This document shows, in pieces, positions 16,568 through 19,655 of a DNA stretch of 43,248 nt. This DNA is from a virus. The notes below the pieces were generated by a model that saw only the letters and a program-made list of their open reading frames with translations, made no database searches and was not told the origin of the DNA. Positions within the stretch are counted from its first letter, which is position 1, and each line of letters opens with the position of its first letter. The translations under genes were made by a program, and so were the position numbers. The stretch lies in UHGV virus genome UHGV-0191121. One strand, 5' to 3'.

Positions 16568-16966
16568 GTGATTTGGATAAGTTTTTCATCGGTAATAATT
16601 GTGTTAGTACTGTGTATTTTTGCTATATATAAGTGGATTAAAGCAGAGAAAAGAGTTAATGAGTTACAGGAAGATAAACATGGATTGCAATTAGATAAGT
16701 TACATTTAGAAAGAGAGGTATCTTGGTTGAAAAATAAGGATAATAAAAACAACATAGGCAAATACGTGGTTGAGTTAAAAAAAGGAGTATATTTAGTGAA
16801 AAAATATATAGGTAGTTATGGAAACACATGCATAATCACTGACAATGTATTTGAAGCTTTATCTTACGACGATTTATATTCAGCTAAAGAAGATGCATGT
16901 AGTTTTAACGGACGTGTACTAGAACACAAACCTAATTTAGAGGTGGTCAAACAATGTGGGGCGTAA
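16568..16966 (+). CDS. N-terminally membrane-anchored hypothetical protein
   Basis: GTG start. TM segment ISFSSVIIVLVLCIFAIY, then coiled coil, then a Cys-containing C-terminal domain. Confidence 0.45.
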   Translation: MIWISFSSVIIVLVLCIFAIYKWIKAEKRVNELQEDKHGLQLDKLHLEREVSWLKNKDNKNNIGKYVVELKKGVYLVKKYIGSYGNTCIITDNVFEALSYDDLYSAKEDACSFNGRVLEHKPNLEVVKQCGA

Positions 16967-17094
16967 TAGCAATCATTATATTAGTTTTACTACTATTTGG
17001 CTCTATACTTGAACAGAATGATCTAAAACATCAGTTAGAAGTGAAAGAGTATGAGGTTAAAAGACTTAAAGATAAGTTGGAGAATGGAGGGTAA
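16954..17094 (+). CDS. Small single-TM protein (46 aa), not in the ORF track
   Basis: MWGVIAIIILVLLLFGSILEQ... followed by a charged coiled tail. Overlaps the upstream stop. Confidence 0.35.
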   Translation: MWGVIAIIILVLLLFGSILEQNDLKHQLEVKEYEVKRLKDKLENGG

Positions 17095-17100
17095 TATTTA

Positions 17101-17502
17101 GTGTATTCAAAAGCATCTATATTAAACATGATTGATGGATATAAAATGAATTGTAATATCCTAGAAGATGTAGTTCCTGAATGCGACAGTAATTCTATAG
17201 CGCAATATGGGATACAAGCTACGTTACCTAAACCACAAGGAGAAAACGGCAGTAAAGTTGAAGATGTAGTAATTAGATTAGAAAGAACAAATAAAAGATA
17301 CGCACAAATGTTAAAAGAAGTTGAGTTCATCAATCAATCTCAACAAAAATTAGGGCATGTTGATTTTTGTTTTCTAGAACACCTCAAGAAAGGCAGACGT
17401 AGAGATAAGATAATAGAAAAGATGCCTAATGCTAAATTGAATAGAAATAATTTTTTAGCACGCAAAGATGAGTTAGCAGAAAAGATTTATTTATTGCAAT
17501 GA
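17101..17502 (+). CDS. ArpU/RinA-superfamily late-gene transcriptional activator (LtrC-like)
   Basis: 133 aa. Located directly upstream of terS, as for rinA/ltrC in staphylococcal phages. The C-terminal basic helix region (KKGRRRDKIIEKMPNAKLNRNNFLARKDELAEKI) resembles a sigma-70 region-4-like HTH. GTG start with GGAGGG RBS. Confidence 0.5.
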   Translation: MYSKASILNMIDGYKMNCNILEDVVPECDSNSIAQYGIQATLPKPQGENGSKVEDVVIRLERTNKRYAQMLKEVEFINQSQQKLGHVDFCFLEHLKKGRRRDKIIEKMPNAKLNRNNFLARKDELAEKIYLLQ

Positions 17503-17971
17503 CAATAATGACGAAAATGACCGAAATGACAGTATTTTTCAAAGGATATATAAATTTTATATAATGAGTGTGTAAGAATTACCTCACAAGACATAGTGCT
17601 TATCCTTTCGCACTATGGTGAGGTATTCAATATCGAAGTGATTGGATAAGTGTTTATCGTCTTTAATTAGACGTTGCGCATCCGATTGCTTAACTATCCG
17701 TCGGAGTGGCGGGTAGTTTTATTGAATCTTACAACACGGCTTCCGATAAGTTGGTATGAATACTTGACATTTAATTTTCCTCCCCTTTACATAGTTATCC
17801 GTGAGAACACACGGGTAACTTATTTTTATGTATTGATGTGACATAGAGGTGTGACATGAGTACATAAACTCAAATAAATAACAAAACATAATCATTAGGC
17901 ACTGTTTACGCAGTGTCTTTTTTATACGTCAAACAAAGGTGTTTAACCGTGAGAGTAGGTGGTAATATACG
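17503..17971 (+). promoter_or_regulatory. Long structured leader upstream of terS: candidate late promoter, hairpins, direct repeats and an intrinsic terminator
   Basis: 470 bp with no ORF of 60 aa or more. 16-bp hairpin at 17580-17625. TTGACA (17764-17769) with a poor -10 at the 17-bp spacing. TGTGACAT x2 (17837-17857). Terminator at 17898-17925. Confidence 0.5.
17898..17925 (+). terminator. Intrinsic terminator 47 nt upstream of the terS start
   Basis: ggcactg-tttacg-cagtgtc stem (7 bp, one G-U) followed by TTTTTTAT. Confidence 0.55.
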
Positions 17972-18406
17972 ATGACGAAACTGAACCTTAAACAACAAAC
18001 ATTTGTTGATGAGTACATTAAGACAGGTACTGCTTATCAATCGGCAATCAAGGCTGGTTATAGTGAGAAATACGCAAAATCAAGTAGTCATAAATTGTTG
18101 GAAAATGTTGGAATAAAAGCAGAGATAGACAAACGAATGGAAAAACTGAAAAAAGATGCAATTGCAGACCAAGACGAAATACTTCAATATCTCACTTCTG
18201 TATTACGTGGGGAAATAACAGACCAAGAACTCATACCGATTGGAATTGGTAGAGGAGAAATGGAAGTAGAGTCTTTGGAAAAACGATCAGATACTAACGC
18301 TAGAACGAAAGCTGCAGAATTATTAGGTAAACGATATATGATGTGGACAGACAAGCAACAAATCGAAACAACTGCGACGGTACAGTTCAATGACGATATC
18401 GATTAA
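17972..18406 (+). CDS. terS: Terminase small subunit (Terminase_2-type)
   Basis: N-terminal LKQQTFVDEYIKTGTAYQSAIKAGYSEKYAKSSSHKLL HTH-like DNA-binding motif typical of TerS. Directly precedes and overlaps terL. Confidence 0.85.
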   Translation: MTKLNLKQQTFVDEYIKTGTAYQSAIKAGYSEKYAKSSSHKLLENVGIKAEIDKRMEKLKKDAIADQDEILQYLTSVLRGEITDQELIPIGIGRGEMEVESLEKRSDTNARTKAAELLGKRYMMWTDKQQIETTATVQFNDDID

Positions 18407-19655
18407 TCTATCCGAACTGTTACCTAAACACTTTCATAGCTTGTGGAAAGCGACTAAAGATAGAGAGAAGCTGAACATAGTAGCTAAAGGCGGACGTGGT
18501 AGTGGTAAGTCGTCTGACATATCTATCATCATTACACAGTTAATCATGCGTTATCCTATGAATGCAGTTGTAGTACGTAAGACAGACAATACATTAGCTA
18601 CATCAGTATTTGAGCAAATTAAGTGGGCGATAGAAGAACAAAAGGTGTCGCACCTGTTCAAAGTTAAAGTGTCGCCAATGGAAATCACGTATGTTCCTAG
18701 AGGGAATCGAATTATCTTTAGAGGGGCGCAGAACCCTGAACGGTTAAAGTCGTTAAAAGATAGTCGGTTCCCTTTTTCTATCATGTGGATAGAGGAATTA
18801 GCAGAATTTAAAACAGAAGATGAAGTCACTACAATCACTAACTCTATGTTACGTGGTGAATTAGATGACGGATTATTCTACAAGTTTTTCTTTAGTTATA
18901 ACCCACCTAAACGAAAACAGTCGTGGGTGAATAAAAAATATGAAACCTCATTCCAACCGAATAACACGTTCGTACATCATTCAACGTACTTAAACAACCC
19001 TTTTATATCTAAACAGTTTATACAAGAGGCAGAGAGTGCGAGAGAACGTAACGAACAACGTTATCGTTGGGAATATATGGGTGAAGCGATTGGTAGTGGT
19101 GTCGTACCGTTTAATAACTTGCAAATAGAGAAGATACCTGACGAGTTGTATAAGAGCTTCGATAATATACGTAATGCAGTTGACTTTGGTTATGCTACTG
19201 ATCCGTTAGCTTTTGTACGTTGGCACTATGATAAGAAGAAACGTATTATCTACGCAGTTGATGAACACTATGGTGTACAAATAAGCAATAGAGAGTTTGC
19301 TAACTGGTTAAAACGTAGAGGTTATCAATCTGATGAGATATACGCAGATAGCGCTGAACCGAAATCAATCGCAGAACTAAAACAAGAACATGGTATTAAG
19401 CGTGTTAAAGGTGTTAAGAAAGGACCAGACAGTGTAGAACACGGGGAACAATGGCTAGATGATTTAACTGCTATTGTGATAGATCCTAACAGAACGCCTA
19501 ACATAGCAAGAGAATTTGAGAATATCGACTATGAAACTGATAAAGACGGTAACGTTAAACCGAGATTAGAAGATAAAGACAACCATACGATAGACGCCAC
19601 TAGATACGCCCTAGAGCGTGACATGAGGCAGAATAAACTTAGCATACTTACGTAA
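18390..19655 (+). CDS. terL: Terminase large subunit (ATPase + RNaseH-like nuclease)
   Basis: Walker A GGRGSGKS, Walker B MWIEE. C-terminal nuclease acidic residues (DxxxD...D). Confidence 0.9.
   Translation: MTISINLSELLPKHFHSLWKATKDREKLNIVAKGGRGSGKSSDISIIITQLIMRYPMNAVVVRKTDNTLATSVFEQIKWAIEEQKVSHLFKVKVSPMEITYVPRGNRIIFRGAQNPERLKSLKDSRFPFSIMWIEELAEFKTEDEVTTITNSMLRGELDDGLFYKFFFSYNPPKRKQSWVNKKYETSFQPNNTFVHHSTYLNNPFISKQFIQEAESARERNEQRYRWEYMGEAIGSGVVPFNNLQIEKIPDELYKSFDNIRNAVDFGYATDPLAFVRWHYDKKKRIIYAVDEHYGVQISNREFANWLKRRGYQSDEIYADSAEPKSIAELKQEHGIKRVKGVKKGPDSVEHGEQWLDDLTAIVIDPNRTPNIAREFENIDYETDKDGNVKPRLEDKDNHTIDATRYALERDMRQNKLSILT

Follow-up and report, generated by a model that had tools for sequence, protein, structure and literature searches.

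We analysed the 469-nt gap (17503-17971) that separates a 133-aa open reading frame (ORF; 17101-17502) from terS in the viral genome UHGV-0191121 (43,248 nt in all, hereafter the window), and find it to be a locus of known kind: a real, conserved and structured regulatory leader, of which the RNA modules are undescribed. The late operon (packaging, morphogenesis and lysis) probably has both its control region and its 5′ leader in this gap, where a promoter dependent on a late transcriptional regulator (Ltr) is followed by terminators that act as a brake. An initial annotation, made from the sequence alone, had singled out a large structured gap before terS, and this description is borne out, with every feature that it listed found in place; to these we add a set of AATGAC repeats, a TATAAT at 17560-65, the hairpins T2 (17793-17820) and T1 (17692-17718), and a module at 17635-17692 (Table 1).

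The late operon governs packaging, and so in staphylococci also the transduction of resistance plasmids and the mobilisation of pathogenicity islands. Its published control includes an oddity, namely activators that bind far upstream of the mapped start of transcription, with a terminator in between. The loci compared here point to one architecture across staphylococcal siphoviruses, in which an Ltr promoter would be followed by a structured leader with terminators and then by the late genes.

An LtrC-type regulator and its predicted promoter

Megablast relatives of the region are temperate Staphylococcus epidermidis siphoviruses of the genus Rockefellervirus (such as PH15, CNPH82, 456 and BE01), and the window is, as judged from these matches, a Rockefellervirus-type S. 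epidermidis prophage. The product of the ORF upstream of the gap is a homologue of phi55 ORF34/LtrC, with 83% identity over its full length of 133 aa to LtrC of phi55-2, and matches phrog_1058; no Pfam, NCBIfam or PDB match was found for it, and in the same profile search the BE01 regulator matched RinA (TIGR01636) at 6.6e-12. By these comparisons the regulator is a member of the LtrC family (family IV of Quiles-Puchalt 2013), not of RinA/ArpU. The activator-dependent late promoter proposed in the initial annotation does lie in the gap, with LtrC in place of the RinA or ArpU protein that had been assumed. The LtrC homologues found (P0001-P0074) are all at least 72% identical, a shallow family that appears, from this collection, to be confined to Staphylococcus.

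Four AATGAC repeats overlap the end of ltrC, and the pattern is unique in the window (3 overlapping matches, where 0.13 would be expected). Just after ltrC, a set of S. aureus phages that includes phi55, phiETA, 80, 88 and 92 shows 78-80% identity to the gap over its first 82 nt, and for the repeat and −10 region the identity to its phi55 counterpart is 79.5%. In phi55, replacement of the repeats abolishes activation, and purified LtrC binds a repeat-containing fragment in electrophoretic mobility shift assays (EMSA) (PMC3753634); the need for LtrC in late transcription is backed by EMSA, reporters and deletion, and repeat swaps establish that the repeat region confers Ltr specificity, for which the published reading holds it to be necessary and sufficient (PMC3753634). 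We regard the AATGAC repeats of the window as the likely, though putative, binding sites of LtrC.

The TATAAT sits 26 nt past the last of these repeats, and transcription is predicted to start 7 nt after it, at ~17572, which would place the repeats at ~−74 to −39. Homology to the phi55 repeat region points to the repeat-plus-TATAAT unit (17498-17565) as the late promoter, a role that had previously been given to a TTGACA at 17764-17769; this hexamer has no usable −10, was not called by the promoter scan and falls within the leader that would be transcribed. All the regulator or repeat types that we met (at least 7) are followed by repeats of their own and then a −10, and across the regulator types the spacing between repeats and consensus −10 is constant; the repeats seen are ATGAC, GGACTT..AAGTCC, TTGCACA, TCGTCAAA, GTGTGCATAG, GCGGAAAAA, TGGCAGT and the 18-mers of Phi13. 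In Phi13, tagRNA-seq, which separates triphosphate from monophosphate ends, puts the primary start directly 3′ of the Ltr repeats (PMC9694928, PMC13123087), and mutation of the TATA box beside those repeats abolishes late mRNAs and phage production (PMC13123087, PMC9694928).

Separately, terS itself starts with ATGACGAAA (17972-17980), identical to one LtrC repeat unit (17508-17516), a 9-mer match that could be due to chance.

Terminators between the promoter and the late genes

The terminator that the initial annotation had reported before terS is present (T3) and stands between the late promoter and terS, preceded by a second strong terminator, T2. T2 folds at −16.5 kcal/mol over the 51 nt from 17785 to 17835 (z = −4.6), and its 28-nt stem-loop alone at −14.6 kcal/mol; T3 folds at −11.6 kcal/mol (z = −4.0), with a U-run that ends ~48 nt before the terS ATG. 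All of the distinct T3 variants (44/44) fold at −11 to −17 kcal/mol with U4-U8 tails, and 99.3% of cells are paired in the T3 alignment, while the T2 position in other leader types is occupied by at least 5 unrelated hairpin sequences, each followed by a T-run. A search for riboswitch-like pairings that would disrupt T2 or T3 returned only weak, unconserved complementarities. Reporters of phi11, phi55 and phiFL2A give no read-through from an upstream Pcad when Ltr is absent (PMC3152322, PMC3753634); by this measure a leader terminator works in vivo in these three phages. T2 and T3 of the window are terminators as predicted from sequence.

The 5′ arm of T2, TTATCCGTGAGA (17795-17806), recurs as TTAACCGTGAGA in the 5′ untranslated region (UTR) of terS (17943-17954), about where one would expect the published 5′ ends of phi11 and 80alpha, 23-24 nt before the ATG. 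Either copy could thus be a partner for the 3′ arm of T2, a choice of pairing that may bear on processing.

To place these terminators in a wider context we used leaders linked to LtrC, collected through the LtrC protein and not through the leader sequence, of which 54 were distinct and scorable. Of these 54, 51 have one or more terminator-like hairpins, usually 2-4, by a simple scan, and one of the three leaders missed by the scan (L097) has a terminator-like hairpin that is seen by eye. Leaders of other Ltr types agree: 80alpha has a hairpin with a U6 tail (L181:1036-1059), and Phi13 has a 10-bp hairpin (L179:1592-1616) with the tail UUAUUUUUAU between its mapped start and its first late gene. 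From the U-run of the Phi13 hairpin to the first late gene's ribosome-binding site there are only ~16 nt, and L022 and L038, the shortest leaders, have 8-11 nt between the T3 U-run and the Shine-Dalgarno sequence. No promoter fits in 8-16 nt, so the late transcripts of Phi13 and of the phages with the shortest leaders must cross the hairpin. Across the leaders compared, at least one strong predicted terminator between the Ltr promoter and the first late gene is the rule, Phi13 included. Searches of an annotated phage collection gave no match to the shortest leader type (L022) and only four to the L023 leader.

Table 1. Features of the gap and of the genes on either side, in window coordinates.
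Feature	Position	Strand	Description
ltrC	17101-17502	+	late transcriptional regulator (family IV Ltr)
AATGAC repeats	17498-17533	+	four direct repeats, 9-bp period, overlapping the ltrC stop codon; putative LtrC binding sites
P1 core promoter	17536-17565	+	weak −35 (TTTTCA/TTCAAA), consensus −10; called by promoter scan
H1	17580-17625	+	bulged 16-bp hairpin (8+8 bp, 4-nt bulge), ~8 nt from predicted RNA 5′ end
Module X and hairpin T1	X 17635-17692; T1 17692-17718; block to 17726	+	X is ~60 nt; T1 tail UUUAUUG weak
CU-rich tract	17775-17788	+	UUUUCCUCCCCUUU, anti-Shine-Dalgarno-like; unpaired in predicted fold
T2	17793-17829	+	intrinsic terminator, 11-bp stem (17793-17820), tail UAUUUUUAU; called by scan
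Imperfect palindrome	17825-17868	+	holds two TGTGACAT repeats (17837-44, 17850-57); −19.5 kcal/mol
A-rich tract	17861-17897	+	37 nt, no G, directly 5′ of T3; read from sequence
T3	17897-17923	+	intrinsic terminator, 9-bp stem (17897-17918), U6 tail; called by scan
terS 5′ UTR	17924-17971	+	CCGTGAGAG (17947-55), Shine-Dalgarno AGGTGG (17957-62); read from sequence
terS	17972-18406	+	first late-operon gene; Pfam Terminase_2, E = 1.9e-30

A conserved leader RNA built from exchangeable modules

Folded as RNA, the 404-nt plus-strand leader reaches −129.1 kcal/mol against −90.7 ± 5.8 kcal/mol for shuffles (z = −6.6), and its minus-strand complement −90.8 kcal/mol (z = −2.2). The minimum free energy (MFE) fold is a row of hairpins, namely H1, X, T1, T2, the repeat palindrome and T3. 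Folding and covariation together show that the ~400 nt upstream of terS are an untranslated plus-strand RNA leader of consecutive hairpins. The covariation analysis that had been proposed for the region supports structure in the alignments of H1, of X with T1, and of T3.

H1, which the initial annotation had described as a bulged hairpin, is present, with 94% of cells paired in its alignment (A4) against 25-50% in slid controls; 3 pairs are changed on both sides, all of these compensatory changes being contributed by the phage SU1, and in S. caledonicus an unrelated hairpin takes the H1 position. The evidence is broader for module X with T1, for which the alignment (A1) comprises 16 sequences from five divergent leader types. 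RNAalifold yields 28 consensus pairs, 12 of them with compensatory double changes, and 94.6% of cells are paired against 34-49% in slid controls, values that none of 500 shuffles reaches. Many of the pairs switch between G-U and Watson-Crick, an alternation that makes sense only in the plus-strand RNA. Matches to a covariance model of the module (R1) number one per phage and all fall within the leader, on its plus strand, although the place of the module is not constant: in EW-type phages it lies elsewhere in the leader, between the two direct repeats. Both H1 and X are missing from many leader types. Rfam gives no match with E <0.76 in this region of the window and none at the gathering score in five related loci, no known RNA family or tRNA was found in the region, and we met no account of the leader RNA structures in PMC3152322, PMC3753634, PMC13123087 or PMC9694928.

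Similarity to relatives with a different regulator starts at 17571, at the predicted start site, and similarity to relatives with a different terS stops at ~17977. These two junctions imply that the promoter travels with the regulator and that the transcribed leader is a separate, exchangeable module; as read from its breakpoints, the leader is itself a mosaic of such modules, bounded by the start site and the terS start codon. Blocks of the leader recur behind three Ltr families (LtrC, RinA and LtrA-like) and further repeat types, and precede both pac and cos modules (Terminase_2 TerS, other TerS types and HNH+TerS), so that the same modules would serve phages with different activators and terminases. 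In some close relatives, namely BE21 (L002:1836-2030) and three with similar leaders (L014, L030 and L092), the T1-T2 segment with its CU tract is replaced by an unrelated AT-rich stretch of ~195 nt, which lengthens the leader to ~470 nt and in some of them includes an extra weak hairpin called by the scan.

This modularity bears on whether the gap might instead be a pac or cos packaging signal acting at the DNA level, or a decayed gene, either of which we consider scarcely credible. The gap lies directly upstream of terS, where cos and some pac sites occur, and the GenBank records of several relatives start inside it: those of PH15, 456, 459, 27 and 48 at the equivalent of window 17667, and those of CNPH82, CNPx, phiIPLA5, phiIPLA7 and E72 at the equivalent of 17730. 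Headful packaging without defined termini is described for the relatives (PMC8125051), however, and we accordingly read these record starts as a convention, though one that cuts their leaders in two. The same blocks are found ahead of small terminases that are unrelated and ahead of cos-type HNH+TerS modules, and do not co-vary with terminase type, and both the structure and the G-U pairs are strand-specific, which speaks against a packaging site and a decayed gene alike. A disrupted ORF had been named as a possible explanation of the gap; the ORFs within it have no Pfam or PHROG matches, and the relatives differ from one another by indels.

The pair of TGTGACAT repeats, which had been proposed as activator-binding or pac-related, can be seen in the same light. 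There are exactly two copies in the window, 13 nt apart, a count that is not significant on its own (1.85 expected), and the pair is conserved as TTGAT(A/G)TGA x2 in other staphylococcal phage genera, read TTGATATGAG x2. Being conserved behind regulators of different families, each of which has its own repeats, the copies are unlikely to be LtrC sites, and the recurrence of the leader blocks before both pac and cos modules argues against a pac site. In the other genera the second copy supplies the −35 for a near-consensus TTGATA-N17-TAAAAT, read by eye just before T3; we considered a sigma-A promoter built on this copy, which is convincing in S. pseudintermedius-type leaders and degenerate in the window (ATAAAT/TAAATA), and rejected it.

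Passage through the terminators

The sequence of events that we favour begins with LtrC, which, given its close homology to the phi55 protein, would bind the four AATGAC repeats and activate the host sigma-A RNA polymerase at P1, a promoter with a good −10 and no real −35, for initiation near 17572. The 5′-terminal stem-loop H1 would probably stabilise the mRNA. T2 and T3 would serve as a built-in brake and insulator, blocking read-through of the early ltrC transcript and stopping transcripts from basal firing of the late promoter, such that the terminase, capsid and lysis genes are kept silent. Full late expression would then require strong LtrC-driven initiation together with passage through T2 and T3, and the transcripts that stop there would be released as by-product RNAs of ~255 nt (T2) and ~350 nt (T3). 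As to the means of passage, our first choice is simple partial read-through of transcripts that start at a very strong promoter, and our second is promoter-specific antitermination.

Several considerations weigh against this account. The start site of the window phage is itself deduced from sequence. Two or three efficient-looking terminators in series would pass little transcript, which makes pure partial read-through an awkward proposition for highly expressed genes. The Ltr-dependent 5′ ends mapped by the rapid amplification of 5′ cDNA ends (5′-RACE) in phi11 (C, −23), 80alpha (G, −24) and phi55 (G, −28) lie downstream of the terminator (PMC3152322, PMC3753634), and the RNA-ligase-mediated variant (RLM-RACE) used for 80alpha selected triphosphate ends (PMC3152322). 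Part of our wider sample was retrieved by a T3-block pattern, and the conservation of the T3 block is to that extent circular. Finally, the favoured account leaves module X, the CU tract, the TGTGACAT/TTGATATGA repeats and the G-less tract without explanation.

The mapped 5′ ends are the foundation of the published model, in which the early ltr transcript simply stops at the terminators and the late promoter is to be sought downstream of T3, starting at ~17948 in the window and activated by the LtrC-bound repeats ~420 bp upstream. We find this unlikely. Besides the RACE ends at −23, −24 and −28, it can draw on a CG(T/C)GAGAG-related motif, which the window and several other terS leaders have near the relevant position, and the published 5′ end of 80alpha (24 nt before the ATG, PMC3152322) is the G just before CGCGAGAG. 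There is, on the other hand, no recognisable −10/−35 upstream of that point in either the window or 80alpha, and from one phage to another the repeats lie anywhere from ~100 to 500 bp away, across unrelated sequence, an arrangement ill-suited to a small activator. The constant spacing of repeats and consensus −10 across the regulator types, the want of room for a promoter after the terminator in Phi13 and the shortest leaders, and the loss of late expression on mutation of the Phi13 TATA box by the repeats (PMC13123087) all speak for the upstream start, and the downstream 5′ ends could be processing products.

The initial annotation's choice between antitermination and a discrete short RNA is, in our judgement, the real question. 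Promoter-specific processive antitermination, following the logic of lambda Q and PR′-tR′, would have polymerase from an Ltr-bound promoter resist T1-T3 while read-through from upstream stops; the agent could be Ltr, or a factor recruited by it, riding the elongation complex, or an RNA composed of H1 and X that acts like HK022 put. We treat this as a possibility, albeit one that we are inclined to doubt. The gene order is that of lambda (regulator gene, DNA site, promoter, short leader, terminator, small terminase), the leader terminators stop Pcad transcripts without Ltr, yet Ltr alone gives expression through the leader (PMC3152322, PMC3753634), and the mapped Phi13 start is upstream of a terminator-like hairpin. 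The terminators are strong-looking (U6-U8) and in tandem, and we found no conserved alternative antiterminator pairing, so that relief would need a factor; more speculatively, a −10-like TAAAAT/CATAAT just upstream of T3 in many leaders could be a sigma-dependent pause site. Antitermination would explain the stop of Pcad transcripts alongside Ltr-dependent passage, the distance between the activator and the RACE ends, and the strong tandem terminators.

Against it, LtrC shows no similarity in sequence to Q or to any known family in searches of Pfam, NCBIfam and PDB, and its AlphaFold2 model, which is all-helical and of low confidence, is too poor for fold comparison (mean predicted local distance difference test score, pLDDT, 51.5). 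P1 lacks a −35, and a Phi13 reporter that retains the hairpin stem but no U-tract still needs Ltr, which implies that Ltr is at least an activator of initiation. The absence of H1 and X from many leader types means that a put-like RNA is not a general solution, and our literature search found nothing that links Ltr or ArpU proteins to antitermination. A wider form of the idea, about which we are somewhat more sceptical, is that activators of the Ltr superfamily (LtrC, RinA, LtrA, ArpU) act with conserved leader terminators in the manner of lambda Q and that the 5′ ends near terS are processing products, with, as a sub-case, module X as a new cis-acting RNA that aids passage. Were this true, the conflicting published starts would be reconciled, and the binding of RinA more than 155 bp upstream of the apparent start would be explained.

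The discrete short RNA of the initial annotation, at ~130 nt, falls with the promoter on which it was based; ends at T2 and T3 would give RNAs of ~255 and ~350 nt from 17572. It remains to consider whether the leader chiefly encodes one or two small RNAs (sRNAs) of this kind (~17572 to T2 or T3), whose CU tract would pair with ribosome-binding sites in phage or host messages in the manner of the C-rich motifs in staphylococcal Rsa RNAs, which we think highly improbable. The tract is of a rare type, with 7 such CU-rich tracts in all on the plus strand of the window, takes no part in pairing in the MFE fold and is followed 8 nt later by a terminator; most leader types, that of 80alpha among them, have similar C/U-rich motifs either upstream of the first strong terminator or in its loop, and UCCC motifs are known effectors in S. 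aureus sRNAs (PMC2790875). Its pairing with the terS initiation region is not preferential, however (rank 36 of 74), no other site in the window is complementary to it, and it varies among close relatives and is missing from the shortest leaders. The leader RNA is moreover not independent of the late mRNA, and the species of ~255 and ~350 nt are predictions. The favoured account, in which P1 is followed by terminators acting as a brake, accommodates such RNAs as by-products, and the coordinates given here allow gating by attenuation as against antitermination, the abundance of leader RNA, and likewise the roles of module X, the CU tract and the TTGATATGA repeats to be addressed.

Other features of the gap and its surroundings

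Counterparts of the G-less tract and T3, at ~76-92% identity, occur in phages of S. aureus and S. pseudintermedius that belong to other genera. On the minus strand (17770-17729), a strong ribosome-binding site, GGGGAGG, is followed after 8 nt by an ATG that opens a 13-codon ORF, MSSIHTNLSEAVL, and most of the leader types inspected have a short ORF (8-19 codons) with a Shine-Dalgarno sequence and ATG at the equivalent spot, namely BE01, SU1, phi55, EW and SAP3, and with poor spacing SP44. We set this mini-ORF aside as a curiosity: the peptides are unrelated, the promoter scan finds no minus-strand promoter, and elsewhere the C-rich motif lies in a hairpin loop without an ATG.

Beyond the gap, terS is followed by terL (18390-19655; Terminase_3). 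Just 5′ of ltrC, a 46-aa ORF (16954-17094) with a hydrophobic N-terminus and a K/E-rich charged C-terminal half matches phrog_1367 and occupies the RinB or “rinMiddle” position of other staphylococcal phages. Tandem terminator-like hairpins at 1720-1742 and 1797-1822 on the plus strand, 55 nt apart, consist of 10-11 bp followed by T-runs and are the sole other plus-strand hairpins in the first 20 kb as strong as T2 and T3. Among the relatives, SU1 (OR842880.1, “Xanthomonas phage SU1”) is labelled a Xanthomonas campestris phage yet classified in Rockefellervirus, and carries rinB, a regulator in the ltr position, BE01/EW-type (GGACTT..AAGTCC) repeats, a late leader of staphylococcal type and an HNH+TerS module; as to the host, the label of this record looks doubtful.

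Comparison with known systems

The closest parallels are the Ltr-dependent loci of staphylococcal phages. The phi55 LtrC, phi11/80alpha RinA and Phi13 Ltr loci have the same order as the window, with ltr, repeats that overlap its 3′ end, an intergenic region and the first packaging gene, and in Ltr-dependent loci, as here, the intergenic region holds a terminator. The window shares the X and T1 module with phi55, but its leader is longer (400 nt, against ~280 in phi55 and ~80 in Phi13) and, unlike theirs, combines two strong terminators with T1. Its distal half (T2, the repeats, the A-rich tract and T3) is absent from phi55 and is held in common with phages of other genera that encode RinA-like or sigma-region-4-like regulators.

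Lambda Q was first described genetically as an activator of the late genes. The lambda locus with Q, PR′, 6S RNA and tR′ has the same order as the window: a regulator gene, a DNA site at a promoter, a short non-coding transcript, a terminator and the small terminase. The two differ in that PR′ is constitutive whereas P1, without a −35, does not look so, and that the Q site lies between −35 and −10 whereas the putative sites of the window are repeats upstream of the promoter at ~−74 to −39. LtrC has no detectable similarity to Q. If antitermination did prove to operate here, the classic lambda principle would extend to a large group of Gram-positive phages.

The put RNA of HK022 resembles the window leader in that stem-loops lie directly 3′ of a phage promoter and 5′ of terminators. 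The two do not match in sequence or structure, and H1 and X are missing from many related leaders that still bear the terminator; moreover, phi55 has X and T1 and yet blocks read-through from upstream when LtrC is absent, a block that a cis-acting RNA of the put type would not permit. Another parallel in promoter layout is Alt of the Lactococcus phage TP901-1, which, as cited in PMC3152322 and PMC13123087, binds a series of direct repeats at ~−76 to −32 of a late promoter upstream of terS; the repeats of the window, at ~−74 to −39, would occupy much the same place, although the two activators are unrelated.

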